From: Nitrosopumilus sp.
Lineage (GTDB): Archaea > Thermoproteota > Nitrososphaeria > Nitrososphaerales > Nitrosopumilaceae
Length of the DNA stretch: 64,000 nucleotides
Reading direction: 5' to 3'
NCBI GenBank assembly: GCA_965223425.1
Contig: OZ245003.1
Location: 864,001 to 928,000 of the forward strand
A program made the translations under genes and the position numbers. Of this stretch, positions 4,650 to 40,528 are shown in pieces. The notes beneath the pieces were generated by a model. That model saw only the letters and a list, made by a program, of their open reading frames with translations, was not told the origin of the DNA and ran no database searches. Numbering within the stretch: position 1 is the stretch's first letter; every line of letters begins with the position of its first letter.

Positions 4650-4675
4650 ATTATATCCGGAACGTTATGGTCATC

Positions 4676-5137
4676 TTACGGCTGACCTGAGTGTGATTTA
4701 ATGCCGTCTTCCAAAAATTCCTCATACTGTTTATTGTTGATGTCGGGTTGACTGTCTAGTTGCATCAAGATCTTTATTCCGCCGTTTGCATATTCTTCGC
4801 ATGTTTTGATAAGTTTTTTAGGATCAGCAAGTGTTTCCAAACCGGCGTCATTATCAGATAATGCCACACAACACATCAACCACACTTCTTGTTCATTTAG
4901 TGCATCTCGCCGTATGGACTGGGATGGAGTTTTAATGGACTCCTTGGCGTCTCGTTTCTTGCCAATGGCCATTGCTAGTAGAAATATGTCTATCTGTCTC
5001 TTGTTGTAAAAGATCGAGTTCTTTTCAACAAGAGCTCCATTTATGCTCGAATAAAATTTCTCCACTGAGCCATCATTCTTGTCATATGACATATGGGTGG
5101 GCCAATCAGACTGGAGTTGACGAGATATCTTATTCAT
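4676..5137 (-). CDS. pbeD: PbeD-like small protein
   Basis: DIFLLAMAIG...EEYANGGI motif; overlaps the 3' end of the SMC-like ATPase; position matches pbeABCD. Confidence 0.6.
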   Translation of the reverse strand: MNKISRQLQSDWPTHMSYDKNDGSVEKFYSSINGALVEKNSIFYNKRQIDIFLLAMAIGKKRDAKESIKTPSQSIRRDALNEQEVWLMCCVALSDNDAGLETLADPKKLIKTCEEYANGGIKILMQLDSQPDINNKQYEEFLEDGIKSHSGQP

Positions 5138-7236: not shown

Positions 7237-7429
7237 AGAAATTCCTTACTTGTTCATCGTCTGCATATTTTTCAAGAAGCTTGTTTATGTTGGATTTGTA
7301 ATCTTTTTTTGCGTTTTGAATATCCATATCGATCTCTGCCTTGAGAATTTCATGTAAGATCTCTTTTATCTTATCAGGCAAGTTGCCATTTTGAATCTTG
7401 TTTGATATGAGAGGGTTTATGGACAACAT
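7220..7429 (-). CDS. pbeB: PbeB-like small subunit
   Basis: 69 aa ORF between the helicase and the ATPase, overlapping the ATPase start. Confidence 0.5.
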   Translation of the reverse strand: MLSINPLISNKIQNGNLPDKIKEILHEILKAEIDMDIQNAKKDYKSNINKLLEKYADDEQVRNFCENYE

Positions 7430-7551
7430 TGGACTGTTTGAAAAAACACCATAAAAATCTTATTTACTATATACGACACTTGACAAGTAAAATTATCAAA
7501 TTAATATGGGATGGATGGAATATTCAGAAATTTGGATTTGTTTTTCGCCTA

Positions 7552-9612: not shown

Positions 9613-10460
9613 AGCATGCCCATCCTCATTAGATGAAATTGGATGTTCTTATCATTTAGTTTGTGGTCGCTAACCATGGCCAGTGTTCCTATTTTATTTC
9701 CATTCTTGTCAATTATTGTTTTTTTGTCACCGTCTATTCCAATTACTTTGTAGTCAAATTCTACGTGATGTGTTGGGCACAAGACAAGCATGTTATCAAA
9801 ATCATCACCACCTCCATCTCCTAACGGATGTATGTGGTGCACTTCGCTGTATCTTGATTTTTCAGAAACGTGTATGGTATTACCGCATATCTGACATTTA
9901 TCATTATATTGTGATTTGAGTTGTTTTACTTTTAGACTGTCTCGAATGAATCGTACTACCACTTCAGATTTTTTGTTTGGGGCGCCATCATCAGACACCA
10001 TTATGGTACCTGTGATCTTTTCTTCCATAGGCGGATATGTATCGATGTTATTTTTTACAAGATAGATGTTTGTAAGCTTGCTAGGTGAACTGATTCCTGC
10101 CTGGTTGCATAGCTTGCTAAAGGTGATATCGATATCGTGAATTGTGGCAAAAAGAATAATCCTATCATGCTCTCTCATTCTAGGTGTGTCTCCCCATATT
10201 CTAATTGCTTGTGACTGGTCAGTAACTTTGGATAGTACTATTCCGCAGTGTCTAAATGGCATTCCTTGCTCTGCAAAAAATATCCTGTCATCTTTTTGTA
10301 TTAACGACCATATGTCGTGATTGGTGGATGGCCCTAACGCCCATACATTATCGGCATCAAACCCATCAATCGATTTGATAATGTCACGGTCATACCCTGT
10401 CCGAAATCGTCGGAACCTCTCTTGATCCCTTTCCCCTACAATTAGTATGTAATCTGCCAT
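9609..10460 (-). CDS. EVE/PUA-like domain + HNH endonuclease (start revised to ATG 10460)
   Basis: CQIC...SEVHHIHPLGDGG.D...NMLVLCPTHH HNH motif; N-terminal W..IQKDDRIFF pattern; the longer ORF overlaps dndA. Confidence 0.75.
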   Translation of the reverse strand: MADYILIVGERDQERFRRFRTGYDRDIIKSIDGFDADNVWALGPSTNHDIWSLIQKDDRIFFAEQGMPFRHCGIVLSKVTDQSQAIRIWGDTPRMREHDRIILFATIHDIDITFSKLCNQAGISSPSKLTNIYLVKNNIDTYPPMEEKITGTIMVSDDGAPNKKSEVVVRFIRDSLKVKQLKSQYNDKCQICGNTIHVSEKSRYSEVHHIHPLGDGGGDDFDNMLVLCPTHHVEFDYKVIGIDGDKKTIIDKNGNKIGTLAMVSDHKLNDKNIQFHLMRMGML

Positions 10461-10464
10461 CTCA

Positions 10465-11631
10465 TCACATCTTGATATTCCCAAGCTTTTGTACTGCATC
10501 AAGTATTTCCCATGCACCAAATTCTGCCTCGTTATCCGCCTCGGTGTATCTGCCCACACCAATTCTGATTGATGAGTGGGCCCTCTCCTCCCCATAGCCT
10601 AGTGCCATTATCACGTGTGATGGTTCCACACTCTGGGTAGTACAGGCAGAGCCGGCAGATATGGCAATGCGGTCAGATACAGAATTTATTATTGCTTTGC
10701 CTTCAATTCCCTCAAAGTACAGATTCAGATTTCCAGCCAGTCGATGAACATCATCGCCATTAAGCTGTGCATTGGCCTCATCCAATATTTCAAGCATCTT
10801 GTTTGTCATGTGATTTTGCCGGATATACTCCGAATGCATGGATGTCACGGCAATATCGATTGCCTTGCCAAATCCAACTATTCCTGGAACATTCAGGGTT
10901 CCAGAACGCAGCTGCCTCTCCTGCCCCCCACCATGAATTATTCCGCTCAGTTTCACACGTGGTTTTATTCCTCGGACATACAGCGCCCCTATTCCCTTGG
11001 GTCCATACATCTTGTGTGCAGAAAAGGACATCAGATCAATGTTCATTTTTTTGACATCTATTGGAATGTTCCCTACCGCCTGGGCCGCATCAGTATGAAA
11101 CAGAATCTCCTTTTCATGTGCAATTTTGCCAATATTCTCAATGTCCTGAATTGTTCCAATCTCATTGTTTGCAGCCATTATGGATATCAGTACTGTGTCA
11201 TTTGTAATTGCATCTTCCAAAGAATTCATATCAATCCTCCCAAGATTATCCACAGGAAGATACGTCACTTTTTTACCACATCGCTCCAGATATCGTGCAG
11301 TCTCCAAGACGGCTTCGTGCTCTGTAACACACGTGATTAGATGATTGCCTTTTTCCTTATAGCTATCCATTACCCCACGCAGTGCAAGATTGTTAGATTC
11401 GGTTGCACCACTAGTAAAGATAATCTCATCACTTCCGGCACCTATTCCATCTGCAATTGTACGTCTGGCAGTCTCCACGGCAGCTTGTGCCTCACTTCCA
11501 TGTCTGTGATCAATGCTTGATGCATTTCCAAATTTTTCCATAAAATATGGCTCCATGGCATCAAAGACCCGCGGATCAAGTGGCGTTGTAGCATTGTGAT
11601 CAAGGTATACGATCTGATCCAGCTTTAACAA
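10465..11631 (-). CDS. dndA: Cysteine desulfurase DndA/IscS
   Basis: YLDHNATTP, FTSGATESNN, SAHK PLP lysine, SAGSACT; located inside the dnd operon. Confidence 0.92.
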   Translation of the reverse strand: MLKLDQIVYLDHNATTPLDPRVFDAMEPYFMEKFGNASSIDHRHGSEAQAAVETARRTIADGIGAGSDEIIFTSGATESNNLALRGVMDSYKEKGNHLITCVTEHEAVLETARYLERCGKKVTYLPVDNLGRIDMNSLEDAITNDTVLISIMAANNEIGTIQDIENIGKIAHEKEILFHTDAAQAVGNIPIDVKKMNIDLMSFSAHKMYGPKGIGALYVRGIKPRVKLSGIIHGGGQERQLRSGTLNVPGIVGFGKAIDIAVTSMHSEYIRQNHMTNKMLEILDEANAQLNGDDVHRLAGNLNLYFEGIEGKAIINSVSDRIAISAGSACTTQSVEPSHVIMALGYGEERAHSSIRIGVGRYTEADNEAEFGAWEILDAVQKLGNIKM

Positions 11632-12066
11632 CTAGTGCCTCTCCTGCTCTATTACGTGATAAAAGTCAGAAATATCCTGTATCCTTGCAGACAGCGCAAT
11701 GACTCCTCGATTAAAGTGTGCCCGCAACATCTTGTTGAGATAAAGCTCCGGGTCTAGTCCGTCTTTTTTGAGACGATATATCATAAGCGTCATAAACATG
11801 TCTTCGTATTCTCCAAAAAGCGTAGAGGGGTACATCTCAGAGCCTCTTTCATCAAACTCTTCAGGGTTTGGAGGCGATGGATCCTGCAGTGACAGACAAA
11901 TTGCAAATCTTCCTGCAATGTTTGGCGTCACTCCGGTTTTTCTTTTTACCATTCCAAGATTGTTCTGTGAGCGTAAACTCATATGCAATCGATTAAAACG
12001 CAACAATCTTTTCACCTTTCTTGTTCCAAAAGTATACATCGTGTTTTTTTGTGGCTCCGTCTCCAT
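11632..12066 (-). CDS. dndE: DNA sulfur modification protein DndE (true start probably near 11983-12010)
   Basis: TGVTPNIAGRFAICLSL...TLFGEY...RAHFNRG; follows dndD. Confidence 0.85.
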   Translation of the reverse strand: METEPQKNTMYTFGTRKVKRLLRFNRLHMSLRSQNNLGMVKRKTGVTPNIAGRFAICLSLQDPSPPNPEEFDERGSEMYPSTLFGEYEDMFMTLMIYRLKKDGLDPELYLNKMLRAHFNRGVIALSARIQDISDFYHVIEQERH

Positions 12067-14026
12067 GAATATACTCCATTGCGTACGAGTGTGACATGTA
12101 CGGCTTTAATTTTTCATAGTGTTCATATTCAATCTCCTTGTCAGTTGAAAATATCAGAATCTGATGTGATGCAAATGGAAAGAATTTTTCAACTATATTT
12201 GTCCTGTGGCTTTCATCTAATCTTGCAAGTGGCGTATCTATCATAAACGGCAAGGGCCTGCCAGATGTTTTAGCAAGTGCCCACAGTATGGCAGTTGCAA
12301 ACATTTGTTTTTCACCCTCAGACAGTATGTCTTTTGGGAGCGGATCATTGTTTTTCCTGTATAGTGTGACCTCAAAGGTCTCTGGGTTTATGACGATTTT
12401 TTCGATAAAGTCCTGTTTGTGTAACAAAGTATGCAGAGCATCTAATGTGTATTGTTCCAAAAGATGTATTTTTTTTGCCTTTAGGTTTTCAACAAATTCT
12501 TCTAGTACGGCCTGCATCTTTTGTGTGAGCTCTACACTAGTCTTTGCTTTATCATCACGATACATTTGTGCCACAATCTCACGTATGTTTACATCGATAT
12601 GGCTATTCATTGCCATAGCTGATGATATTTGTTCTTCAATATGGTTCATCTCGGCTCGAAGTTCTCCGACAAATTTGTTTGCCTTGCCAATCTTTGACAT
12701 TAACGGCCCTATTTCATCATCATCTGGTGCACGTGCTATGATTGAATGTAATTCTGAAATTTCCTCAGATAAAATACCAATATTTTCTGCTTCTTTTTTA
12801 AAATTATCTAGCATGATATCTGATGCTTTAACTGTCTGGTGTATCTCAGATGTCTGTTGCTGTGACAATCCAAACATCACCTCTTGACTGCCTGAATCCG
12901 CATCGTCTTTAATTAATTCAGATATTTTCTCTCTAATGTGCTGACGTGTATGTTTTTCCACATCAAACTCACTCCAAAATTCCTCCTTTTGTAGAATGGT
13001 ATCAACCTTGCCTGCTGTTATCTTGAGTATTTTGGCTCTATCCCTGTCACGTTGATTGATAGTGTCATGCATTATTTGTCCACTAACTGCATCAAGTATG
13101 TCAGAAATGAGACAAAATGGAGTAGGACCTGCACACATCTCCTGCATTCTTTTTTTGGTTATCTCGTATGTTTCAGTCTTTACTGTAAGCTGTGTTTTTG
13201 CATCATCACGTTTGTCTGCATATCCACCGCCTAGCTTTGATATCTTTTTCTCCATAGCTTCTATGCCCATTTCATTAGAGTCAAGCTCGTTTTGCTTTTG
13301 TGCTAATCTCTCTTGCAGTCGTCCTACAAGATTCAAATTCTCTTCTTTTTCTGCCTTGAGTTTTTCAAAGCGTTCTTGTAGTGACTTGCCTCCACTTGTA
13401 AGGTGTCTTACAAGATTTACCTGCAAATCTGTTTTAAGCTGCTCTACAAGCTCGATTCCAAGAAGCGATTTAAATGAATCACGTATTGCAAGATCTTCTT
13501 TTCCTTCTTTTGCAATTTTTACTATCTTTTCACCATCAAAAAAGAACAGTTTTACTATTCCTCGTGGAATGAGGTCTTCAACAAATGACTGCCATTGGGA
13601 TTCTTCTACCATGTCTAGCGGTTCAAATTCATCGTCATCAGCATGACGTTTTTTTATTACAAGATTCTCCTCTACGTCATCATTATCATTAGTCCATGTT
13701 CTGGCCACACGATATTCTGTCTCTTTTCTGTTATGAGAGAATTTGAACTGTACTACAATCGATGCATAATCTGCAGATGTGGCGCTGTTTAGATAACGGT
13801 GAACTTTTCTTGCAAGAAACTTGTGATATGTCTTTTGTGTGGTTTTTTTGCCCATAGTAGACATTCCGTAAAGGCACAACATTATGGACTCAAATAAGGT
13901 AGTCTTGCCGGCACCGTTTGTACCCCCAATTAATACCACCGGTTTTTCATCAGTGCAAGAAAAATCAAATTCATTTTTGCCTTTATACACTCCGTAATCT
14001 TGCAATATTACCTTGGTTAAGATCAT
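11993..14026 (-). CDS. dndD: DNA sulfur modification ATPase DndD
   Basis: GGTNGAGKTT, FFFDGEKI, LSEGEKQ, IDTPLARLD. Confidence 0.92.
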   Translation of the reverse strand: MILTKVILQDYGVYKGKNEFDFSCTDEKPVVLIGGTNGAGKTTLFESIMLCLYGMSTMGKKTTQKTYHKFLARKVHRYLNSATSADYASIVVQFKFSHNRKETEYRVARTWTNDNDDVEENLVIKKRHADDDEFEPLDMVEESQWQSFVEDLIPRGIVKLFFFDGEKIVKIAKEGKEDLAIRDSFKSLLGIELVEQLKTDLQVNLVRHLTSGGKSLQERFEKLKAEKEENLNLVGRLQERLAQKQNELDSNEMGIEAMEKKISKLGGGYADKRDDAKTQLTVKTETYEITKKRMQEMCAGPTPFCLISDILDAVSGQIMHDTINQRDRDRAKILKITAGKVDTILQKEEFWSEFDVEKHTRQHIREKISELIKDDADSGSQEVMFGLSQQQTSEIHQTVKASDIMLDNFKKEAENIGILSEEISELHSIIARAPDDDEIGPLMSKIGKANKFVGELRAEMNHIEEQISSAMAMNSHIDVNIREIVAQMYRDDKAKTSVELTQKMQAVLEEFVENLKAKKIHLLEQYTLDALHTLLHKQDFIEKIVINPETFEVTLYRKNNDPLPKDILSEGEKQMFATAILWALAKTSGRPLPFMIDTPLARLDESHRTNIVEKFFPFASHQILIFSTDKEIEYEHYEKLKPYMSHSYAMEYIHGDGATKKHDVYFWNKKGEKIVAF

Positions 14027-15528
14027 CTCTTGCCGTACTCCTTTTCTTTCTGTTTTTTATCCCGAAGGTCTTTGACTACGGCATCAAGATCATCGCGCCA
14101 TTCCTCTGACAATATTTTGTTTATCTTTGGGTAAATCTTTGAATGTCTAGACATGCCCTGTGACTCGTATTCGGCATTTAGCAATTTTGATACCAAAAGT
14201 TGCGGTACGTCATTTTTTGCACAAATTTTCTCCAGTGTATCTTGTTCTATCTTGCCAAATCCAGCAAGATCCTCCTGTCTGTATTCAAGTTTTTCACCTG
14301 TAATGTTTTCAAATATCTGATATGCCGTATTTTTCCAATCACCTCGCTCCATCCTCCATATTCGCTGAATTTCATGCAATTCATCTTCGGTTATAAGATT
14401 CATGTGTGGATCTGGCCCGTTTTGTCGCACTTTGTTTTGCGCCTTTAGCAGTTTTTCTAAAAATTCAATGCAAAATTCCAAAGTATATGGACCCGGAACC
14501 AGTATAGAGTATGGGTCAGACATATCGTCACCTCTAGTTGAATTCATCTTTGATTCCCGCATGTGTTTCTCAAAGCCTGCCCTGACATCATCGCTGATTA
14601 ATTTCATCTGTCCTATTCTCCTTTTGAGGCTCCTGACATGTCTGCGCTTTGCGGGATCCTGTGTTTCCTTGAGATCCTCACGCAGTTCCAGCAGTGGCTC
14701 CATCCAGTCCTCACCGTTTTCAATTGTATTTTGCAGGGATGTGTCCTTGTCTACTACCGTGCATGTCCAACATCCGAATCTACTGTTTCCACATGAAGGC
14801 GTACTGGTGTCTACAACCAACGGACACTCTGATGAGTTGGCGTTTTGATATAGTGACAGCAAATCACGGTTGTTTGCACCCCACGGATTTTTGTTTTGGA
14901 GAAGATAGTTCCACACGTCTTTTGTGATAAAGTCTCGCAGGGGCGTATACACATAGGTCTGGGCAAATTTTGAGTGACGTGATAGTAAGCTGTCTTTTAT
15001 CTCGTACAGGTTCATGAGCTGCTGGCGCGAGCCGCTCTCATCCTTTCTTGTTCCAAGAACGACGATTGCCTCACCATACTGCGATATCTTCTCTTGGATG
15101 AACCTGTCTGCATTTCGTATCTTGAGTCTCTCAGTGCACCATCGAAAGAGGTTGCTTGGAGCGGGAAATCCCTTTCCCAAAAGGCAGACCCAGAAGGTAT
15201 CCTCGACTACGGGCCTTACCAGATTTGTCGATACTGGAAAGTGGGTCTTTTTTGAGGCATTCTCCATCATGTCCAGTGTGCTTGTTATCTGCTCTACAAC
15301 CTTGGGTGATTCCACCAATGTATCTGAGGATATTATGAATATTTTTTTGTGAAGCTTCTCGGCGGGAAGTTCTGATAGTGCATTCCAGATCATCTGCACC
15401 ATGCATGTAGAGTCCTTGCCACCGCTGAATCCCATTATCCAGGGCCTATTGTCCCCTAGGTAAACCTGTCTTATCTCATCATAGATATCGTTTAGCTTGC
15501 GTGTTTTGAAGATGGATTCGGCAGTCAC
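14023..15528 (-). CDS. dndC: Phosphorothioation sulfurtransferase DndC
   Basis: GFSGGKDS PP-loop, RWCTERLKI, SRFGCWTC. Confidence 0.95.
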   Translation of the reverse strand: MTAESIFKTRKLNDIYDEIRQVYLGDNRPWIMGFSGGKDSTCMVQMIWNALSELPAEKLHKKIFIISSDTLVESPKVVEQITSTLDMMENASKKTHFPVSTNLVRPVVEDTFWVCLLGKGFPAPSNLFRWCTERLKIRNADRFIQEKISQYGEAIVVLGTRKDESGSRQQLMNLYEIKDSLLSRHSKFAQTYVYTPLRDFITKDVWNYLLQNKNPWGANNRDLLSLYQNANSSECPLVVDTSTPSCGNSRFGCWTCTVVDKDTSLQNTIENGEDWMEPLLELREDLKETQDPAKRRHVRSLKRRIGQMKLISDDVRAGFEKHMRESKMNSTRGDDMSDPYSILVPGPYTLEFCIEFLEKLLKAQNKVRQNGPDPHMNLITEDELHEIQRIWRMERGDWKNTAYQIFENITGEKLEYRQEDLAGFGKIEQDTLEKICAKNDVPQLLVSKLLNAEYESQGMSRHSKIYPKINKILSEEWRDDLDAVVKDLRDKKQKEKEYGKR

Positions 15529-16631
15529 TTGCGAGCTACCTCGTCTACTGTTTTGTTTATTCCAAGTTGTGAAAGGACTTCATTTGCTGCCCTCTTTATG
15601 CCCAGTCTGTTTTTTAGCATCTTGCCATCCATTACTACCTTATCTTCCCATATGGGGTTGTTCTTTTTCCAATCTATCTTCTGCAAGCCTTTTAGCTTTT
15701 CCTTCCAGTTGGAATTTTGTACAAGTACATGGCCTACTATCCCCAATGCAGTCAGAACATTTGTATGTGCATGAATGTATTGTTCACGTAGATTTTCTGG
15801 TTTTAGTTTATTTTGCATTAAAAGATTCCATTCAGGAATATTCTTTGATACATGATCCCAGTATTCTACTGCTAACTTTTGTTTTTCCTCATCTAATGAT
15901 TTTGTTTTGAGTTTCAAAAAATGTCGTGTGGCTTCTGCAACACCGTTTAATGTAAAAAAGTTACTAGAACGCTTTCCCACGTTTGTACGCTCCATCTCAG
16001 TTCTGTTATAAAATATATCTAAATCCTTTACCATTGTTACAATAAATCGTGCAAAAGTATCTCTGTGGTCATACAACAAACCAAGTGATTTTGTTGGTTT
16101 GACTGCATGCTTGTTCAAATCAGCAAATAATTGCTGACTGCGTTTTAGTCCACGATCCTCAAAGATAACTACAGGAATTCTTTCATTTCTAAGATTAACG
16201 TTTTCCTCATATGCTTTTTTTATTGCAGCACATCTGTGTTGTCCGTCATTGACTAAGATTGCAGCATCAAGTGGTACCGCTAATACTCCTGCCTTTGCGT
16301 CAGAACCCAATCCAGGATATGGGTTGAATTTTAATTTAGAATTAACTGAAACTGTAATGGGGGCAATAACATAATCATCTGGATTAGAAACAATGTAATT
16401 GACTATCTTTGGAATTCTCGGTTCTCTTAGCTTACGTTGTGCTTTTTGTTCTGCAGTAATTTGGGGGTCATTGGGATAAACAAAATATTTGCTAATGGTA
16501 GCAAATGTACACATTGTAACATAATATTCTCTTTTTGCTTGAGTTCCACGAATTACATCAAATGGTACTGCTTCCACATTATCTTGCATAATTATTCTAT
16601 TAGACCCTATATTATAAAGGGTTGTACGCAA
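15525..16631 (-). CDS. dndB: DndB DGQHR-domain regulator
   Basis: NDGQHR, QQLFADLN; directly upstream of dndC. Confidence 0.9.
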   Translation of the reverse strand: MRTTLYNIGSNRIIMQDNVEAVPFDVIRGTQAKREYYVTMCTFATISKYFVYPNDPQITAEQKAQRKLREPRIPKIVNYIVSNPDDYVIAPITVSVNSKLKFNPYPGLGSDAKAGVLAVPLDAAILVNDGQHRCAAIKKAYEENVNLRNERIPVVIFEDRGLKRSQQLFADLNKHAVKPTKSLGLLYDHRDTFARFIVTMVKDLDIFYNRTEMERTNVGKRSSNFFTLNGVAEATRHFLKLKTKSLDEEKQKLAVEYWDHVSKNIPEWNLLMQNKLKPENLREQYIHAHTNVLTALGIVGHVLVQNSNWKEKLKGLQKIDWKKNNPIWEDKVVMDGKMLKNRLGIKRAANEVLSQLGINKTVDEVARK

Positions 16632-16790: not shown

Positions 16791-17003
16791 TCAATTCGAT
16801 TTTCCTCTTTTATCGATATTAATATTGCATTGATCTCTAAGATAATTCCTATACTTTTCATGTGCGTCATGACACTCTCTGCATAATTCTACTTTTGGGG
16901 TTCGGCCCTAGCCGTCAAGATATTCTACGACATGATGCTCTGTCAACTCAACTCCTGTTTTGTTGCACACACCGCACTTTCCTACACGATAGGTTTCATT
17001 CAT
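16791..17003 (-). pseudogene. Small HNH/Zn-finger protein interrupted by in-frame TAG (16908-16910)
   Basis: MNETYRVGKCGVC...EHHV...G*GRTPKVELCRECH... reads through in one frame except for the TAG. Confidence 0.55.
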
Positions 17004-17054
17004 GGCAAACAATACACTTGAGACACGTATTAATGTAAATAAAAAATATTTTGA

Positions 17055-17924
17055 CTAATTTCTAACTTCCAACAATCTCTTCTTCCACTTTAGATATTTT
17101 GGCTCTGGCGGATATCTTGCTGTCTCTTTTATCTTCAATTCCTCTGGAATATGTTCAAGCCAAGACTTTACAATACGCTCTCTTTGGTCACGCAAATATT
17201 CAGATACTGTTATTCCAAGATCAGATTCAAGCATTATGGAGCCTTTCTCAAAGGCAACATCACAAAACCTACACAACAACAATCCATTTGAGGGATTCAT
17301 TGCGTTTTCTGCCTCCTCTATTCTCATTGTGGAATATGGAACAATATGTGCGCCTATCATGTATTCAGGAATTTTAAATCCACAAAAAGCACACTTGCTA
17401 TATTCTTTGAAAAGTTCCTCCCGGAAAGCATTTTGTTTCTGTCTGACATAGACCATAGACATTTCGCCTTTTGAGTGAAAATTTTTCTCTTTTATCTCCT
17501 GACTGACTTTACTGTACACAAACTTGTCAAGTTTTGTCTTGTCAAGACGCCATATCCCCATTCCAGTATTACTCTTCTTTATTACACGCCAGTCAATAAG
17601 TACATCTTTTCTGCGCAATTCTCCAACCACATTTGCTATTGCCTTGTAAAGTTCATTTTTCTCCTTGTCTGATCCATAATCTTCCAACTTGAGATTGAGC
17701 TTCATTGCCACAAATTCGTCAAGCCATGGTTTAGTGTGCCAGATTGGATTGTCTTTTAATTCTTTATGCTTGGGATTATCTAGGATTTTTCTCTTTTCAT
17801 AATTTTCTATCTTGGATATGGACATGCCTATTTCATTGAGGCCCTCCCAGACAAACCTCTCCAAGCCTGTAAACTCGGGATGTTTGGTGTATTTGTGAGG
17901 TTTGTATGGAGGGAGCTTGGACAT
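17055..17924 (-). CDS. HNH endonuclease with helical/wHTH-like N-terminus
   Basis: CAFCG...GAHIVPYS...NPSNGLLLCRFCDVAFEKG. Confidence 0.8.
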   Translation of the reverse strand: MSKLPPYKPHKYTKHPEFTGLERFVWEGLNEIGMSISKIENYEKRKILDNPKHKELKDNPIWHTKPWLDEFVAMKLNLKLEDYGSDKEKNELYKAIANVVGELRRKDVLIDWRVIKKSNTGMGIWRLDKTKLDKFVYSKVSQEIKEKNFHSKGEMSMVYVRQKQNAFREELFKEYSKCAFCGFKIPEYMIGAHIVPYSTMRIEEAENAMNPSNGLLLCRFCDVAFEKGSIMLESDLGITVSEYLRDQRERIVKSWLEHIPEELKIKETARYPPEPKYLKWKKRLLEVRN

Positions 17925-18218
17925 TAGATTCTAGTCTAACAGAATTAACATGGATTGATAAAGTTAATCATAAAACTCTTAAAGGAAATTTTGAATGATG
18001 TGACAGGAATCAAATAATTACATGAACGTCAAATAATTGAGGGTATTTAATATTTCCCTATCTATCCTATCACGAATAGTATTGGTATAGGAATTATTTT
18101 TGTCTTTTCTGGAATTTTAAAGAATTTTACATTTGAGCCCCCTGACACATGGAAAATTTGATGATTAATTTGAGCCCCCTTTGATCATAATTTTTTCAAA
18201 ATAGATTATACATGGGTA

Positions 18219-18240
18219 ACCGGGCTGGTAACAGCCCGGT
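18219..18240. other. Perfect GC-rich hairpin (9-bp stem, GTAA loop)
   Basis: accgggctg-gtaa-cagcccggt in an AT-rich intergenic region. Confidence 0.8.
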
Positions 18241-18375
18241 GTTAGTTCTAGTACAAGGACTTCCGATAGGAAGTCTTTGGAAAAAAGATGTTGAGTTACT
18301 GAAATCAAACTCGTCGAGTTCGTTTTTGTGAGGTAAATGCGAGTTGAAAATTTGAGTGTGGCAGGCGAGACGTAT

Positions 18376-18518
18376 TTCAAAAGTGCATTTAGTGCATTAA
18401 AAAAATGCATTTAGTGCACTTCAAAAAGTGCATTTAGTACATTTAGTACATTAAAAAAATACACTAAGTGCATTTAGTGCACTTCAAAAAGTGCATTTAG
18501 TACATTTAGTGCATTTAT
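18376..18518. repeat. Array of 9-bp GT(G/A)CATTTA repeats with TTCAAAAA linkers
   Basis: About ten near-identical copies immediately upstream of the AbrB-like gene. Confidence 0.85.
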
Positions 18519-18548
18519 GACCTTAAATTATTCTGAGATTGTGTCAAT

Positions 18549-18851
18549 ATGGATTCGGAAAAAATACTTGAACGACAAGTACAACGAAGACAGTGTTCTT
18601 ACGTTTTGACCATACCTCCTTCAGTGATCAAGATTCTAAAGGTCAAAGAAGGTCAAAATGTGAGATTTTATCCTCGTAACGACACAGTGACAATTAAAGC
18701 CGCAAACAAGGAATTGACAAAAAAAGATCTAAGTGACATAGAAAAATTCGAAAAGATCCTTGATAAAATGATGGAAGAAGACGAACCAGAGCAAAAGAAA
18801 CCTGAAAAACATCCAGAGATAAGCGATTTGGAAAAACTACGAATCAAATAA
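18549..18851 (+). CDS. AbrB/MazE/SpoVT-family DNA-binding protein
   Basis: RQVQRR..SYVLTIPPSVIKILKVKEGQNVRF. Confidence 0.75.
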   Translation: MDSEKILERQVQRRQCSYVLTIPPSVIKILKVKEGQNVRFYPRNDTVTIKAANKELTKKDLSDIEKFEKILDKMMEEDEPEQKKPEKHPEISDLEKLRIK

Positions 18852-21800
18852 CTCCTACCTTTACACCTTTTTTTTCTTTATCTTCAAGGGCATCATGGAT
18901 TTCCTGAATCTTGGAATTTTTAGACCATACATGACATTTCTCAAATCCCATGTCTTTCCACTTTATCATGTTGTATCTGACATGCTCCCGATGACTGTTC
19001 ACTTCACTTATTGACTCCAACTCTACGCTGATTGGGATCTGGGAAGCATAGTCATAAACGACCAAGTCAGTCCTGTCCTGACCCTTGCGAATCTTTTGTG
19101 TAGCCATTGTAACGAACATCTCTTTTTTGAGATAGACATCAATTGCGGCCTTTGTTACCTCTTCGATGTCTGCAGCCGATCCTATCTCTGTCACATCATA
19201 GTCAAAATAGTCCTCTCGTGCCTTCTCTGTCAGGGCATATGGAGACATTCGAGTATCGTCTGTTCTTTTTAGAATTTTATCAGAGATCATCTGCTTTAGG
19301 ACGGCAAGCACTTCTGACCTGTTCTGAACCTTTAGCATGTCTACCATGTCTGCCTGCCTCATCTCTCTTTCTCTTAGCATGAGCATAATCTTCCACTCCA
19401 TCTGGGATGGAAACGGCACTGAAATGTTTTGTATCCATTTGCTTTTTTTGGCACTCATCTGCCTTGTGGCCGTATCCTCGACTTTGCCGCTGCCATACTT
19501 TTCTAGCTGACCTAGCACAAACTCGTCATAATCCTCGTCTACGGTAAGCAGGGCAGGCGGCTGATTCAGCCAGAACTGTACGGGTGGCGGCTGCTCCTCT
19601 CCAGGCGGCGCCTTTTCCCGTATGGTCCAATGAAAGTATTCCTGACTGGCAAACTGTTGCATGAGCTCCTTTTGAAACTGTGGATCCCATATCTGTGCAA
19701 TTCTGGCGGCATCCTTGCCGTTCACCTTCCCAATTAGCTGCGTTCCAGAGTTTCCTGTAATTATTCCAAGCTGCTTGTCACTGATCTGCTCAGTAGTCTG
19801 GTGTGATAGAATCAATCCCAGCCCTAAAGACCGCGCCTGCTCCAGCATAAGCTGTAAGACCTGTAAATCCTTGACTATCTGAAACTCGTCTAATGCCAGA
19901 ACAACCTGCGTTCTGTCTTTTTCATCTTGAACCTTGTTTGCCCGCTCTTGTATGGTAAACCACAGTTTCAGAATAAACGCCTGCATGGCAAGCGGCTGTA
20001 CGTGCTGTGGCATGTTAAGCGGGGATATTCGAACTACAGTATACCTTCCTGCCCGTATTATCTCATCAAAGTTTACAGTTCCTTTTCTTACAGAGAACAT
20101 TCTTTTGAGTACCGGGTCAGTAGCAAACTGCTCTATCCTGTTCAGTAGCGGCGTAAAGGCATCGCCCTTGAGCGTGGCAATACTGGTCAGTGCCTGCCTC
20201 ATCTCAGGATCCGGCGTGCCAAATGTCTGAATGATTTGTGGCAGGGCATCGTTTCCCCTGTCTTGTAGCTTTAGAATAATATCGTGAATGTCCAAAAACG
20301 TGGGCGCATCATGCTTCATGTAGATGTAAAACAGCAAGGCCCGAAATATCCTCTCCATCTGCACATATCTTGCAGACTGCTGGTACCATTCTTCTATCGT
20401 CTTCATAAAGTATCCGACATATCGGGATACTGTCTCCTCGCGCTCCTTTGACTGATATGCCGGAAGCTCTAGCGGGTTTATCGAGAATTTAGTCTCTTGC
20501 GGATCCAAAAAGTGTACCCGGCCACCTGATATGGTGTCCGGTTCGCACTGCTTGATGAATTTGTGAGAGTCATCGCCCTTTGGGTCCACATAGACAAACG
20601 CGTTTGCAAACTTGCCGTTGTTGTTCCAGGATTCCAAATGCTTTGCAAACAGCCTGATCAGCGAGGTCTTGCCGGAGCCTGATGCCCCAACCCCATAGAA
20701 GTGGTTTGCAAAGTCAGTAGGGGAGATGACTGCAGCATCAATGTCTTTTGATTTTTCTATATTGCCCCAGATTGACTGCCAGTCAAAGTCTTTTTTGATC
20801 TTGAAGAATCCGATGTTGGCCCCTGCCTTTTGTGATGGCTTTACTGGCAGTGATACGCCTCTGGTGGTTCCTATGTTTGGTGTGGTTGGATTTGGCAGGT
20901 GGATAAACAGCGGTATCTCTGAGAGGTTCAGTATAAGAAATGGTAATGGCCCCCTTTCACGATAGCTAAACAATCCCCTCTCAAAGTATTTGCCAACTGC
21001 TGAATCCAAAAATGGTCTTGGGTCTGGCAGCAATCGGGACTCAAATACCTCCAGCCTGCAATGTTTCTCCTTTCTGCCCTCAATCTTGATTGATGTCTTT
21101 TTGGGATTTTCGTGATTAAACTCGTCATAGTCGTACCGAAACTTTGTTAGGTGCTCATGGCTTGAGTGTATGTTCTCTATGGGCAGCGCCTCTATCTCAT
21201 CAAAGTGCAAGTCAAGATCAGAATCGCTCTTTATCAGACCGCGTATGCTCATCAAAAGATGCGCGCTCTGCATCTTGAGTGTGGCATGTTTTTGCAAACC
21301 TCCATAGTTGTTTGTAAAGTCGTATCCCAGTTCTGGATGCTCGTGTGGTTTTTTGTCCGGGTGCAGCAGAATCTCTGACGTGTTAAGGTAGTTTCCCCGC
21401 TTTATCTCGCGTGCCTTCTCATCCAGTCTTGTTACGTGCTTTCGCAAAAACGCGTTAAAGGAGTAATACCGGAACGTAAACTGTATCCATGCATACTTTG
21501 ATAACTGTATTGTATTTGCAATCTGCGTTATTATCTGGTGGGATTTTGTCTGATCAAATACGGCAGTGTAATGGCCGTGATATGTGCCGACATCAAATAT
21601 CTGATACTGGGATTTTTTGTCAAACCATTCTGGTGATGTACTGGACAGATCAGTAAACGCCGCGTTTGGATACATGTTTGCAAAGGCCTGCTTGAAGTTT
21701 GAGATGTCTTTGGCCTCGCCAACTAGGACAAACTGCAGGCTTTTTTCTGTGCTGTCCCACCACAGCTCAAAGCTCCTGATTCCTGCGTTTACTAGGCCGC

Positions 21801-21954
21801 CTGCGGCTGTAACTGCCTCCTTTTTGTCCATTGAAATTGGTATGATTACCGAGCATGCAGAGAGTTTTTCTGCAGCAGAAAGGAACTTTTTTACCTGACT
21901 TAGCTGCCCTTTTTGTTTCTTCTTGTTTGCAAGACGCCAGCGTTTTGAGCCCAA
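18844..21954 (-). CDS. VirD4/TraG-like coupling ATPase with C-terminal wHTH and PD-(D/E)xK-like domain (start revised to TTG 21954)
   Basis: GASGSGKT, VDPKGD, LALDEFQ, QARSLGLGLILSHQ; TATA-like TTTTAAAA about 25 nt upstream of the TTG; the annotated first 61 aa are an IS remnant. Confidence 0.8.
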   Translation of the reverse strand: MGSKRWRLANKKKQKGQLSQVKKFLSAAEKLSACSVIIPISMDKKEAVTAAGGLVNAGIRSFELWWDSTEKSLQFVLVGEAKDISNFKQAFANMYPNAAFTDLSSTSPEWFDKKSQYQIFDVGTYHGHYTAVFDQTKSHQIITQIANTIQLSKYAWIQFTFRYYSFNAFLRKHVTRLDEKAREIKRGNYLNTSEILLHPDKKPHEHPELGYDFTNNYGGLQKHATLKMQSAHLLMSIRGLIKSDSDLDLHFDEIEALPIENIHSSHEHLTKFRYDYDEFNHENPKKTSIKIEGRKEKHCRLEVFESRLLPDPRPFLDSAVGKYFERGLFSYRERGPLPFLILNLSEIPLFIHLPNPTTPNIGTTRGVSLPVKPSQKAGANIGFFKIKKDFDWQSIWGNIEKSKDIDAAVISPTDFANHFYGVGASGSGKTSLIRLFAKHLESWNNNGKFANAFVYVDPKGDDSHKFIKQCEPDTISGGRVHFLDPQETKFSINPLELPAYQSKEREETVSRYVGYFMKTIEEWYQQSARYVQMERIFRALLFYIYMKHDAPTFLDIHDIILKLQDRGNDALPQIIQTFGTPDPEMRQALTSIATLKGDAFTPLLNRIEQFATDPVLKRMFSVRKGTVNFDEIIRAGRYTVVRISPLNMPQHVQPLAMQAFILKLWFTIQERANKVQDEKDRTQVVLALDEFQIVKDLQVLQLMLEQARSLGLGLILSHQTTEQISDKQLGIITGNSGTQLIGKVNGKDAARIAQIWDPQFQKELMQQFASQEYFHWTIREKAPPGEEQPPPVQFWLNQPPALLTVDEDYDEFVLGQLEKYGSGKVEDTATRQMSAKKSKWIQNISVPFPSQMEWKIMLMLREREMRQADMVDMLKVQNRSEVLAVLKQMISDKILKRTDDTRMSPYALTEKAREDYFDYDVTEIGSAADIEEVTKAAIDVYLKKEMFVTMATQKIRKGQDRTDLVVYDYASQIPISVELESISEVNSHREHVRYNMIKWKDMGFEKCHVWSKNSKIQEIHDALEDKEKKGVKVGVI

Positions 21955-21999
21955 GTCACAAAAAATGATTAGTTTTTTTAAAAGGATAGTACAGGATGC

Positions 22000-22220
22000 A
22001 GAATGCTGCTGTTGCCTGGCAATCGTGGCGTGGTCAGGCACCGGCTCCCTCCAGGGCAGGTCCAGATGCGGCACCATGTTCTGCATGTCCCGGTACGTGG
22101 CATTCAGCATGACTGTCAGCATGCACACGCAGTGCATCTTGGCATCAGAGTGGACTGCCTTGCGCCCCCTGACGTTGTTTCTTGCCGACGGGGGATGGGT
22201 TGTTTTTGATCAAAAAAACT
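22000..22220 (-). pseudogene. IS5-like transposase fragment
   Basis: GC-rich segment encoding TYRDMQ...PVPDHATIAR. Confidence 0.5.
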
Positions 22221-24192: not shown

Positions 24193-25023
24193 TTACCCTA
24201 CAAGCTTGTAAAGGCCGCGGGCATTACTCATTACAGGATCATCTGGAATCAACATCTCAAAGTCCTTCAGTCTTGACAAGAGCTCCTTGTTCATTCCAGG
24301 AATCAGCAGACCGCCACCAGATATTGCTATTGGATACTGGTTGTTGTAATTCTTTGACATTTCACATATCTCGCGTGTAAGATTCTCTGCTAGAATCTTG
24401 GAATATTTCCTGCATGTGTCCTTGTTCTGAAACAATTGCTTTACGTCTAGGTGTGCAAACTTGCCAATCTTTTTTGTAACAAAGTCTGATGCCCACTGTG
24501 AGCTATCCCCATCAATGACCTCCATGCTGTCAATTACAATTATTTCAGTTGTTCCCTGTCCTATGGATACTACAATTCCGCGCTTTCTGCCAAGATCCAA
24601 TATGGTGCCACATGCTTGTGGCACTGCAACACATTGCTCTACATTGAGAATTTTTTTGACCATCTTTGTGATCATATCTTTGCTGTCATACGCATAGTAT
24701 GGCAATCCCACAACAATCTTCACTTTCTCGTTGACATCTACTGGAGTCTTTGCGTTTTTGTATATCTGGTTCATTGATTCCTGTATTAGCATCTCGACTT
24801 GTTTTGTGTATTTTGAGTCAGGCTTTCCCCTGTTGATTGGCCGTATTGCAGATGTTCCCATGGTGTTTATTATGTTTAGAGCAGATTCGCCTACTGCCTC
24901 AGTTGTATTGCCGGCCCAGCTTCCGTGTATTCTTTTTACATAAACTGAGGGAAATCTCACAGAGCCATAGTCTGAAACACATTTGACAAAGCCTGTTCCA
25001 AGGTCTAATCCTATCTTTAGCAC
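24193..25023 (-). CDS. ParM/StbA-like actin-family ATPase
   Basis: IGLDLGTGFVK, VSIGQGTTE, ISGGG. Confidence 0.8.
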   Translation of the reverse strand: MLKIGLDLGTGFVKCVSDYGSVRFPSVYVKRIHGSWAGNTTEAVGESALNIINTMGTSAIRPINRGKPDSKYTKQVEMLIQESMNQIYKNAKTPVDVNEKVKIVVGLPYYAYDSKDMITKMVKKILNVEQCVAVPQACGTILDLGRKRGIVVSIGQGTTEIIVIDSMEVIDGDSSQWASDFVTKKIGKFAHLDVKQLFQNKDTCRKYSKILAENLTREICEMSKNYNNQYPIAISGGGLLIPGMNKELLSRLKDFEMLIPDDPVMSNARGLYKLVG

Positions 25024-25584: not shown

Positions 25585-26238
25585 TCACACAAGCATTATT
25601 GAAACCATTATTGCAATTACAAACGCTGCAAGCATAAACGGAAATGCAGGCATTGCCCATGTCACAAACACTCCTGTCCTTTCCTCATAGTCAGATTCTG
25701 GAGACGGTGTCTTGAGGCTGATGATCCTTTTGCCATCCCTCACACGCTCTGCACAGAAGGTAAACCTCTCATGAGCCCTTTTCTTGTGTGTTGAATAAAA
25801 CGCCATGATCTTGACTGGTGCAGAGCACTCTACATTCCCAAACAACTGCCTGTGACGAACCAAGTCCTCAACGTTGTATCGCAGATTGTAAAAAAATGCA
25901 GCAAAATGCTCCAATATCAACCCCCCAAAGAACACTGCAGCAGGATTCATCACGATCCCAAAGGATACCGGATATGCAACAGATATCACCAGTATTGCAA
26001 GTGCGTCTGCATCGCCCATCGGAAATATTTTCCACACCAAAAACGCAGTCACGCATCCCGCTGCAACTGCAAACATCACAAAAAAATCAACCTCGCTCCA
26101 GTCAAACACATACAGAATCGCGCCGATGCCTCCCCCTGCAACCCAGAGATAGTCAGGTATCTGCCTTGATCTTACATCATGGTATGATGCAATACAAAGT
26201 ATTGAAAGCATTAGGGCCATCCGTGGTATCTCTAGCAT
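25585..26238 (-). CDS. Prepilin peptidase (A24/PibD-like); start revised to ATG 26238
   Basis: SYHDVRSRQIPD, MGDADA, C-terminal MPAFPF, multiple TM segments. Confidence 0.85.
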   Translation of the reverse strand: MLEIPRMALMLSILCIASYHDVRSRQIPDYLWVAGGGIGAILYVFDWSEVDFFVMFAVAAGCVTAFLVWKIFPMGDADALAILVISVAYPVSFGIVMNPAAVFFGGLILEHFAAFFYNLRYNVEDLVRHRQLFGNVECSAPVKIMAFYSTHKKRAHERFTFCAERVRDGKRIISLKTPSPESDYEERTGVFVTWAMPAFPFMLAAFVIAIMVSIMLV

Positions 26239-26270
26239 CACAATAAAACCGCAGATTAGATAAAAACAGT

Positions 26271-26897
26271 CTAGTGCGGGTTTATCGTCTGTATTGCACC
26301 AGGATCCTCTAGTACAATTTTGTTTAGCGTATTTTCCAATCCAGCAATCCAGCAATGCAGCTCATCTAATGCCTCCTGATGCATCTCAAGTGTGTCTAGA
26401 AAATCTGCATTGATCTGAATGACATGATTTGAGATGTGTTTTGTCATCTCCTTGGAACAGAGAGCAAAGCCTGCATTGGCTATTGTCTTGTAGGAATAAA
26501 TTCCTTTGAAGGTATTTGCAATATCATGCAGGGCGTAAAATGATCTAGAGTTGTTTTTTAGTTGGTTTTTGTGCAGAGCATAGGCCTCAGATATTATGCA
26601 CAGACACAAAAAAGAAATTTCAAACTTGTGGCACAAGACTTTGCATCTGCCATGCAGGGTAAGCTTGTATCTTGCTCCCGGATGACAGTTGTCGACTTTT
26701 TCTATATAATGTTGTTTTGCCAATCTCACCATCAATGAATAATCTACACCAATATTCTGAACATCCCTGCTTGCAAGCATTTTGTGCGGATAAAATTTTG
26801 TGAGTACATTTGTGGTAATGGAATTTGTTCTAAAAGTATGCCTGTTACGTCTAAGATGATACAGCATGTGTGAGGAATAGTCATTTGTGCACGACAT
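26271..26897 (-). CDS. Hypothetical protein, possible winged helix
   Basis: LVRLAKQHYIEK...YKLTLHG-like wHTH pattern; co-oriented with neighbours. Confidence 0.5.
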   Translation of the reverse strand: MSCTNDYSSHMLYHLRRNRHTFRTNSITTNVLTKFYPHKMLASRDVQNIGVDYSLMVRLAKQHYIEKVDNCHPGARYKLTLHGRCKVLCHKFEISFLCLCIISEAYALHKNQLKNNSRSFYALHDIANTFKGIYSYKTIANAGFALCSKEMTKHISNHVIQINADFLDTLEMHQEALDELHCWIAGLENTLNKIVLEDPGAIQTINPH

Positions 26898-28003: not shown

Positions 28004-28714
28004 CTAGTTTACCCCCATCTCATCTAGTGCGATATCTACTGCCCGCCTTGCCCTGTTCTGATGATTTCCATGAAGGCATGAGAAATTATTCATTACCCTT
28101 ACCTTGAATCTGTCATAATCCCTCGAGTCTGCAAACAGATGCTGTTTGCGTGATATTGCTAGATTGAGATAATAGCTTGACGAGTGGCCCTCGTTTGTAT
28201 TGATTCCAAGGTGCAGTGCGTCATCGTGTATTTCAGATATCACACTTAGCATGCTCGGGGTGTTTTTAACGCACAATACTGACTGCACTGCTTCTTGAAT
28301 CTGCATCTCGTCTATTGCCTGACTTGATTCCCTGCATGCGACATATATGGAAAACGTGGCACACTTTGCCCTAGTGTAGTATGTCTTGCTTCGAAGCAGG
28401 TGGTATATCTTCCATGCCCTCTGTTGAATGGAGTTTGAGAGTTTTAGCTTGCTGCATATGTTGGAAAACTCTGATGCACTAGAAGAATAGATGTGAATTT
28501 TTTTGTTTACCACTTTCATGTCTTTTGGGTCACATCCGTTTTCCACCTGGTGGTACAGTGGAATTACGCTGTTTTGCGTAACCAGTGAATCATCAAACAT
28601 CTTTTCTTCTAAGACAACTCCACACTTGCAGACAGATTCGCCATCAGATGTGACAGTTATGTCATTGGGCCTGTTGTGCTTGCATGTAATCAATAATTGA
28701 AACAGTTTTTTCAT
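28004..28714 (-). CDS. Divergent transcription factor B (TFIIB) paralog
   Basis: Zn-ribbon DGESVCKCGVVLEE; cyclin-repeat ICSKLKL...ATFSIYVACRE. Confidence 0.7.
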   Translation of the reverse strand: MKKLFQLLITCKHNRPNDITVTSDGESVCKCGVVLEEKMFDDSLVTQNSVIPLYHQVENGCDPKDMKVVNKKIHIYSSSASEFSNICSKLKLSNSIQQRAWKIYHLLRSKTYYTRAKCATFSIYVACRESSQAIDEMQIQEAVQSVLCVKNTPSMLSVISEIHDDALHLGINTNEGHSSSYYLNLAISRKQHLFADSRDYDRFKVRVMNNFSCLHGNHQNRARRAVDIALDEMGVN

Positions 28715-40105: not shown

Positions 40106-40528
40106 TCATCCTGATTTTTGCACGTCAAAGCATTCTATCGCAGAACCGTCTTCAGTCGTTGCCGATGCCCTCACAATGTATTCTTTATCAGATATTTTGG
40201 CAGAAAAGGAATCCATCTGTCTCCATGCGCCCCCTGGCGCAATTGCAACAGAACTATTGCCAAATCCGTGTGACGTGCCGTCATCATCTGCAAATGTGAC
40301 ATTGGCAGCAGTGATTACTCCAGAGCCCACATTGCGCAATGACACTGCAAGGTATGCCCTCTCCCCGACATCATACAAGGAGACATCAGATAGCATGCAT
40401 CCGGAATTTCTTGTCGCAATGTCTGCATAGTCTGTCAGGACTGCAAGCAGCATTCCAGACAGCACGATTCCAAATCCAATAAGCATTGATACTGCAATCA
40501 GGCCGTGCATGCCGCGCCTTTTCCTCAC
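40106..40528 (-). CDS. Archaeal type IV pilin
   Basis: Class III signal MRKRRG|MHGLIAV; VSLRNVG. Confidence 0.75.
   Translation of the reverse strand: MRKRRGMHGLIAVSMLIGFGIVLSGMLLAVLTDYADIATRNSGCMLSDVSLYDVGERAYLAVSLRNVGSGVITAANVTFADDDGTSHGFGNSSVAIAPGGAWRQMDSFSAKISDKEYIVRASATTEDGSAIECFDVQKSG

Follow-up and report, generated by a model that had tools for sequence, protein, structure and literature searches.

A winged-helix and nuclease-fold module fused to the coupling ATPase of a Nitrosopumilus conjugative element is a relaxase candidate

The window is a stretch of 64,000 nucleotides from Nitrosopumilus sp. (contig OZ245003.1, positions 864,001 to 928,000) and is an integrated conjugative element of an ammonia-oxidising archaeon of the class Nitrososphaeria. 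Its minus strand contains an open reading frame (ORF) that, judged by its domain matches, is a VirD4/TraG-type coupling ATPase. The encoded protein continues past the ATPase into a winged helix and a domain with a predicted nuclease fold. We call the C-terminal 211 residues P0002, or the module; D138, E153, E155, H163 and K173 of P0002 are D1024, E1039, E1041, H1049 and K1059 of the ORF as listed. The gene has the following features:

18844-22137, minus strand: ORF of the VirD4/TraG-type coupling ATPase, 1097 codons as listed
20818-21954, minus strand: N-terminal domain of about 380 amino acids (aa), no Pfam match
19528-20820, minus strand: P-loop ATPase domain of the type IV coupling protein (T4CP) / HerA-FtsK kind
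20665-20688, minus strand: Walker A motif GASGSGKT, residues 484-491
19201-19413, minus strand: winged helix-turn-helix, P0002 residues 23-93, residues 909-979 of the listed ORF
18847-19182, minus strand: PD-(D/E)xK-fold domain, P0002 residues 100-211
19066-19068, 19021-19023 and 19015-19017, minus strand: codons of D1024, E1039 and E1041, the putative active site
18961-18963, minus strand: codon of K1059, conserved together with H1049 in the helix after the putative active site

Homologues of the protein begin at the motif MGSxRW, and because the counterpart of this start is a TTG codon at residue 62 of the listed ORF, the gene probably spans 18844-21954. The ATPase matched the Pfam families TrwB_AAD_bind (23.4 bits, cut-off 20.5) and TraG-D_C (22.6 bits, cut-off 22), each of which is also matched by 46 of 84 family members. 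DUF87 and FtsK_SpoIIIE matched as well, which places the ATPase in the HerA/FtsK/VirD4 group, and the NCBIfam VirD4-like CD1115 model gave an E-value of 7e-7, which is far under that model's own cut-off. The long forms of the family (about 1000-1260 aa) are comprised of the N-terminal domain, the ATPase and the module; the N-terminal domain is missing from the short forms (about 620-740 aa), which have the ATPase and the module. The 61 extra codons of the listed ORF (21955-22137) had no counterpart in 30 aligned relatives.

The bacterial T4CPs TrwB, VirD4, TraD and TraG share the P-loop motor with this protein, and the window gene is likewise encoded together with a VirB4-like ATPase. Unlike them, the window protein has no N-terminal membrane span that a simple hydropathy scan could detect (best 19-aa Kyte-Doolittle mean 1.35), and it has in addition the N-terminal domain and the C-terminal winged helix with its nuclease-fold domain. 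To our knowledge, no such module occurs in bacterial T4CPs. Streptomyces TraB and FtsK gamma are hexameric pumps of double-stranded DNA (dsDNA) with a C-terminal winged helix that reads short repeats, clt and KOPS respectively. They belong to the same superfamily as the window protein and share its winged helix, but they lack a nuclease domain.

A first-pass annotation of this DNA had read two segments after the ATPase, MRQADMVDML...YALTEKA and RTDLVVYD...ISVELES, as a winged helix and a restriction-endonuclease-like domain. Both occur in the translation of 18847-19479 (minus strand), the last 211 residues after the VirD4-like ATPase, and the predicted structure is consistent with that reading. 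The 211 residues were modelled with a predicted local distance difference test score (pLDDT) of 92 as a winged helix followed by an alpha-beta-beta-beta-alpha-beta domain of the PD-(D/E)xK type. Since the winged helix dominated fold searches with the whole module, the nuclease part was also modelled alone; these last 115 residues (pLDDT 92.5) formed a helix, three strands, a helix and a strand. A Foldseek search with this part returned nothing at E <= 0.001. Its top rows were PD-(D/E)xK nucleases, namely BstEII (1.7e-3), NucS (2.1e-3), EndoMS and SfsA, with EcoT38I also present, and further structural neighbours were AF1548, PaqCI, Hjc, Card1, Can2, HamA and McrC. The likeness to NucS/EndoMS, AF1548, PaqCI and other PD-(D/E)xK nucleases is one of fold only, with identities to the module of 7-14% and with different partner domains and biology. 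Searching the module against the sequences of solved structures gave just a marginal MarR-type match (E 0.16), and its matches in Pfam and NCBIfam were at chance level or confined to the winged helix.

In the model, D138 is found where strand 2 starts and strand 3 contains E153 and E155; the metal ligands of PD-(D/E)xK enzymes occupy these positions. The combination D...ExE is an active-site variant known from BamHI. The C-terminal module is predicted to be most likely a working metal-dependent endonuclease.

We then counted how often these residues are kept, a check that the first-pass annotation had proposed. An exhaustive HMMER search with a three-row profile, in which each hit is the representative of a 50%-identity cluster, gave 102 representatives with E <= 0.001, of which 76 reached 1e-10 or lower and 33 reached 1e-30 or lower. 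Over the representatives that cover each position, D138 was present in 80 of 84, E153 in 89 of 92 and E155 in 90 of 93; in this alignment the acidic residues are conserved well beyond chance. Other positions were also kept: E159 (80/92), H163 (84/93), N170 (83/93), K173 (83/92) and Q128 (74/80). Directly before D138, 29 of 84 have P and 38 of 84 have T, which means that many members show the classical 'PD'.

The module is joined to its motor in nearly all longer members of this set. A word-index search found 31 clusters with the module among 787 candidates of 603-1920 aa; the window genome contains three paralogues, and two of the 31 clusters are paralogues from this same genome. Among representatives of at least 300 aa, a VirD4-like ATPase lies directly upstream of the module in 50 of 52. 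The exceptions are P0053 and P0130, and the start of P0130 resembles the end of a Sulfolobales-type TraG ATPase. The fusion of module and ATPase appears obligate. A search for stand-alone forms gave 4 hits among 333 candidates, of which three are cut at contig ends or contain parts of the ATPase and the fourth is a 187-aa fragment beginning inside the winged helix; these hits do not support a common split form.

Stand-alone forms are rare and limited to short proteins of two types, both G+C-rich. P0132 (184 aa) has a compact winged helix and a nuclease-fold domain with the motif D...E-V-E kept and is without the ATPase, and P0129 (131 aa) has the linker and nuclease domain only. Judging by the sequence of P0132, a stand-alone form of the module may exist.

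To see how widely the module occurs, we used a sample of 301 genomes from across the Nitrososphaeria. The module was present in 40 of them, including 35 of 180 from the window's own family (the window genome not counted), and the four module hits in another family covered only the winged helix, at E about 1e-4. At E <= 1e-20 the ATPase was also found in 40 of 301 genomes, ten of which belong to four other families. From these other families we retrieved eight distant VirD4-like genes. The hidden Markov model (HMM) of the module detected one of the eight (L020, E 2.3e-9). By eye, each of the eight tails shows a stretch resembling a winged helix and, after it, the motifs GG..H, PD, E-x-E-(T) and Q..N..K, which are intact in six. 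When the alignment of the distant tails was compared with the window module by hhalign, the two matched across 174 columns (98.7% probability, E 2.7e-16), and their motifs lined up. Four distant proteins (L022, L021, L024 and L023) end in a second winged helix, which comes after the nuclease-fold domain and gave hits to MarR_2, HTH_11 and HTH_24.

Relatives of the ATPase were also found by tblastn in 64 plasmid records, including Thermococcus nautili pT33-3, twelve from Sulfolobus and many from haloarchaea. The module HMM matched the TraG/VirD4 proteins of pNOB8 (E 4e-26), pTC (3e-20) and pT33-3 (4e-22), and the match to haloarchaeal pNVE500 was weak (E 0.08). The proteins of pNOB8 (1025 aa), pTC (ORF1019) and pT33-3 (1370 aa) have the same ATPase as the window protein (24-30% identity by tblastn) followed by the same winged helix and nuclease-fold module, and their rows align with it at PD, E-I-E-S, H, N and K. 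They differ from it in the long low-complexity tails that follow the module and in their setting, since the window protein belongs to a chromosomal element of a mesophilic ammonia oxidiser. Their records are annotated just as DUF87, ATP-binding or type IV secretion system (T4SS) DNA-binding proteins. Mutating the VirB4- and VirD4-like genes of pT33-3 abolished transfer, according to a passage of a T4SS review of December 2025.

Conjugation in archaea has been known since pNOB8. The first-pass annotation had stated that the relaxases of crenarchaeal-type conjugative elements are unidentified, which agrees with the passages on this point in Krupovic et al. 2019, Beltran 2023 and the December 2025 review, where no archaeal relaxase is known. 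A passage of the 2015 pTC paper likewise describes the DNA-opening enzyme of pTC1 and several Sulfolobus plasmids as unknown. We found no published description of the domain in the main texts that made up the literature searched, with Catchpole 2023 and Greve 2004 outside that search; the words nuclease, relaxase, oriT and nick are all absent from PMC9899855.

We also searched for other relaxases and found none, in agreement with the earlier observation that no canonical relaxase is recognisable here. Pfam scans of 50 ORFs of the window detected no relaxase family. In the whole genome, which is 99.99% complete, there were 0 matches to Relaxase (PF03432), TrwC (PF08751), MobA_MobL (PF03389), Mob_Pre (PF01076), TraI_2 (PF07514) and Rep_trans (PF02486), and the controls for these six families each matched in 1-3 of 14 named genomes. 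The genome had no match to Replic_Relax (PF13814) either, but the control for this family matched nowhere. With PF13814 there was no hit for P0002 or P0034 at E <= 10, and the family is neither among the 25 commonest families of the 84 members nor among the families listed for the eight distant members. The three results that would have refuted the first-pass annotation (no nuclease fold, unconserved acidic residues, a canonical relaxase) were looked for, and none was obtained.

Replic_Relax is the family to which the first-pass annotation had likened the module. This family, MOBC, includes TraX of pAD1 and MobC of CloDF13 and also consists of a winged helix followed by a PD-(D/E)xK-type catalytic domain; a passage of the December 2025 review describes MOBC/TraX in the same terms, as an N-terminal winged helix with a PD-(D/E)xK-type active site. 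We chose as reference the TraX-like 'replication-relaxation family protein' of pTEF1, which matches PF13814 at 28.5 bits (cut-off 25.3), has the acidic motif D...E-I-E where the window module has D...E-x-E, and is encoded two genes downstream of a T4CP gene. The record of CloDF13 lists a 'Mobilization protein A' and no MobC, and it was not used for comparison. A MOBC profile was built from the pTEF1 protein and 101 relatives (102 sequences, enterococcal only, with an effective sequence number, Neff, of about 4.3). The whole module aligned with this profile by hhalign at 94% probability, the aligned part comprising only winged helix, 'IG' linker and first helix, and the distant group aligned at 61% over only the winged helix and linker. 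The resemblance therefore holds for layout and motif and fails for the nuclease core. Because there is no Pfam match and the nuclease cores could not be aligned, membership in MOBC is unsupported, and by its sequence the module is an analogue of MOBC in layout and motif and not a demonstrated member. MOBC relaxases are moreover stand-alone bacterial proteins of about 260 aa, unlike the motor-fused module of the window.

Directly beyond the 3' end of the ATPase gene are a small convergent gene and a non-coding module:

18549-18851, plus strand: AbrB/MazE-like gene, 100 aa, with sub-threshold matches to PrlF_antitoxin (E 0.005) and MazE_antitoxin (E 0.0098)
18379-18517: 9-bp repeat AGTRCATTT in about 13 copies, some 30 bp upstream of the AbrB/MazE-like gene
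18316-18343: conserved non-coding block GAGTTCGTT..TTTGTGAGGTAAATGCGAG, common to 4 loci from different genomes
18255-18278: second strong hairpin; at 18257-18276, 8 bp with a 4-nt loop
18220-18239: first strong hairpin
18131-18180: two copies of ATTTGAGCCCCCT, 37 bp apart

The AbrB/MazE-like gene and the ATPase gene are convergent, and their 3' ends overlap. The stem of the hairpin at 18257-18276 was paired in 32 of 32 cells over four sequences, with both sides changed in 5 of 8 pairs, compared with 31-63% paired in slid controls, and 18205-18350 folded as DNA gave z = -5.35. The order of the elements recurs in paralogue C, in locus L004 and, with other repeat units, in L005, where a different, CTGCAGGCGCC-type array occupies the array position. 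Repeats like ATTTGAGCCCCCT are present in three copies in paralogue C, and pNOB8 has ATYTCTATACCCCC twice at the equivalent place. At paralogue B (G000:C1:1900535-1901334), transposase-like coding sequence is found in place of the block and array, and this gene may have been parted from its cis region by an insertion.

A comparable arrangement is found on plasmids. In Sulfolobus plasmids, as set out in a passage of the 2015 pTC paper, a small convergent ORF comes after the TraG gene, and next to it is the repeat-rich 'section B', which is read as a replication origin; this section carries the motif TCTATACCCCC. Like the window, pNOB8 and pTC have a small convergent ORF that overlaps the 3' end and then a repeat-rich non-coding region. 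Their small ORFs differ from the AbrB/MazE-like gene in having no detectable kinship with it.

Several other observations concern this region. Beyond the hairpins, two loci from metagenome-assembled genomes, L004:7385-7630 and L005:7980-8290, contain long arrays of perfect tandem repeats (units of 21 bp, GGCCCGTACAGGTCACCAAG-type, and of 15 bp, GGCCCGTGGCTCCAT-type), and the window has CCCCC repeats there. About 28 kb upstream of the window, at G000:C1:835300-835600, is a second, truncated copy of the non-coding module with the same AAGGACTTCCGATAGGAAGTCC hairpin and a GAGTTCGTT..TTTATGAGGTAAATGCGAAGG block and without the repeat array; it lies near another DndB/DndC-like pair. An HNH_2 endonuclease gene (17055-17924, E 5e-11) directly adjoins the non-coding module of the window, and paralogue C has a 499-aa relative of it at the same place (48% identity over 273 residues). 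Rfam searches of 17000-19000 gave only miRNA-like hits on palindromic repeats, all of them sub-threshold, which we dismiss as chance.

The rest of the window contains other genes of the element:

40525-42342, minus strand: VirB4/TrbE-like ATPase
42389-43891: pilus ATPase
46098-46568: archaeal pilin
47098-49026: pilus platform protein
25585-26355: prepilin peptidase
28004-28714: TFIIB-like gene
24193-25023: actin-like gene
62903-63991: weak tyrosine-integrase-like ORF
10465-11631, 11993-14026, 14023-15528 and 15525-16631: Dnd phosphorothioation genes, in order a cysteine desulfurase, SMC-like DndD, DndC and DndB
5134-10595: HNH protein, SNF2/ResIII helicase and a second SMC-like ATPase, alongside the Dnd cluster

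Elements of this kind in Thaumarchaeota are the subject of passages in Krupovic et al. 2019, and we found related loci in a metagenome-assembled genome (MAG) of Cenarchaeum sp. and in a Nitrosopumilaceae MAG. The Dnd cluster and its neighbours (2517-16631) appear to be carried as cargo beside the coupling-ATPase gene. Transposases also occur within the element, and a tRNA scan of the window found none. Two 'archaeal ATPase' genes (ATPase_2/AAA_22) are located at 38776-39948 and 36388-38772, the larger of which has an internal winged helix (HTH_24, MarR).

We propose that the module and the coupling ATPase together are a relaxase candidate, a site-directed nuclease tied to a motor that would open the DNA of the element, and we put the probability of this at roughly 0.45. 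The winged helix would aim its own nuclease at DNA, and the nuclease, tethered to the hexameric motor, would cut element DNA at a nearby cis site. The best candidate for this site is the hairpin with the conserved block at 18220-18343, flanked by the repeat arrays. Most likely, one strand would be nicked by hydrolysis without the protein becoming covalently linked to the DNA, as is reported for MOBC relaxases, which according to a passage of the December 2025 review form no covalent intermediate and bind direct repeats 70-120 bp from the nick. The cut end would then pass straight to the channel of the ATPase, so that one polypeptide would both cut and pump in place of the bacterial pair of relaxase and coupling protein. 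In this proposal we infer catalysis, a nick as opposed to a double-strand cut, the cut site, the protein that binds the repeats and the role in transfer alike.

Several results weigh against the proposal. The nuclease core matches no Pfam family, its third motif position is E155 and not the canonical K of (D/E)xK, and the nuclease parts alone gave 4.6% probability and no alignment against the enterococcal MOBC profile. The motif is altered in two of the eight distant tails: L021 reads E-S-Q, and L027 has neither the D nor the first E. At E <= 1, tblastn of the module against 72,556 plasmids gave no match, so that the plasmid copies are visible to HMMs only. The spread of the cis features is incomplete, as 12 of 16 loci have a homologue of the AbrB/MazE-like gene in this position and just 4 of 16 have the TGCA-core arrays and conserved block. 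The non-coding module could instead be the promoter or operator of the small gene, or a replication origin such as the Sulfolobus 'section B'. Finally, a hydrolytic cut keeps no bond energy for rejoining in the recipient.

The most probable of the alternatives, although we consider it unlikely, is that a site-specific double-strand cut linearises the excised circle and the motor then pumps dsDNA, as Streptomyces TraB does with clt repeats. Most of the structural neighbours (restriction enzymes, NucS, Hjc) are dimeric and cleave both strands. An FtsK-like pump whose C-terminal winged helix reads short repeats is the arrangement of TraB and FtsK gamma, and repeat arrays adjoin the gene. A passage of Krupovic et al. 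2019 also repeats the suggestion that dsDNA may be transferred in archaeal conjugation. Against this, the element has pilin-like and VirB4-like genes, and Beltran 2023, in a passage based on the size of the pilus lumen, considers single-stranded DNA (ssDNA) most likely in archaeal mating pili.

Another explanation involves a parallel to HerA-NurA, which a passage of Beltran 2023 proposes as the source of ssDNA in archaeal transfer. A nuclease of little specificity, similar to HerA-NurA, might degrade or clip one strand or process ends as the motor tracks, yielding the single strand that is exported. The ATPase does fall in the HerA/FtsK/VirD4 group by its DUF87 and FtsK_SpoIIIE hits, and its nuclease is covalently joined to the motor. 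However, the winged helix ahead of the nuclease is conserved in the members that we inspected, which argues for recognition of a site, and a conserved hairpin and block adjoin the gene. An unspecific nuclease on a constitutive motor would also be hazardous to the host, and we regard this explanation as improbable.

Equally improbable in our view is that the module acts in something other than the initiation of transfer, for example in starting replication or resolving multimers of the excised element, in entry exclusion or in attacking competing DNA. Such roles would fit the reading of the equivalent Sulfolobus plasmid region as a replication origin in the cited passage of the pTC paper, the adjoining defence-type cargo (Dnd genes, HNH nucleases), and the presence of the defence nucleases Card1, Can2, HamA and McrC among the structural neighbours. 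They fit less well with a module that stays with the coupling ATPase in Nitrososphaeria, Sulfolobales and Thermococcales elements of differing cargo and that is rarely found on its own, and nicking for replication and nicking for transfer are not exclusive of each other. Least probable is that the fold was kept and cutting lost, leaving the coupling protein with a module for DNA binding or assembly only: the classical lysine is absent, one of the eight distant members lacks the D and first E, and inactive PD-(D/E)xK domains are known elsewhere, but D, E and E are kept in 95-97% of covering representatives together with H, N and K of the next helix, a conservation that is hard to explain without catalysis or metal binding, and the motif is the one known from BamHI.

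The candidate relaxase of the window may belong to a broader pattern, for which our case is tentative and which we think somewhat more apt to be wrong than right. The winged helix with the D...ExE module would be the relaxase of archaeal conjugation generally, in integrated conjugative elements of Nitrososphaeria, plasmids of Sulfolobales, Thermococcales pT33-3 and probably haloarchaeal plasmids, and would constitute a new MOB class that nicks by hydrolysis. The hairpin and conserved block of the window (18220-18343) would serve as the transfer origin, and its accessory protein would be the product of the small convergent gene.

This work adds a case from the Thaumarchaeota in which one genome carries three paralogues, connects two diverged forms of the module across the class, gives an explicit negative test against MOBC, and describes the conserved non-coding module with its small partner gene. 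A nuclease fold with an intact acidic site, inside the protein that hands over the DNA, narrows the open question of the archaeal relaxase to a testable candidate. If the proposal is wrong, what remains is still a pan-archaeal fusion of motor and nuclease, in which the nuclease domain has no Pfam model and no published description that we found. If it is true, the module would be a marker for locating archaeal transfer origins. It would also bear on a question raised in a passage of the December 2025 review, namely how relaxases that form no covalent link (MOBC, MOBH) deliver their DNA: because the nuclease is part of the motor, the fusion would explain how uncapped DNA reaches the channel without such a link.

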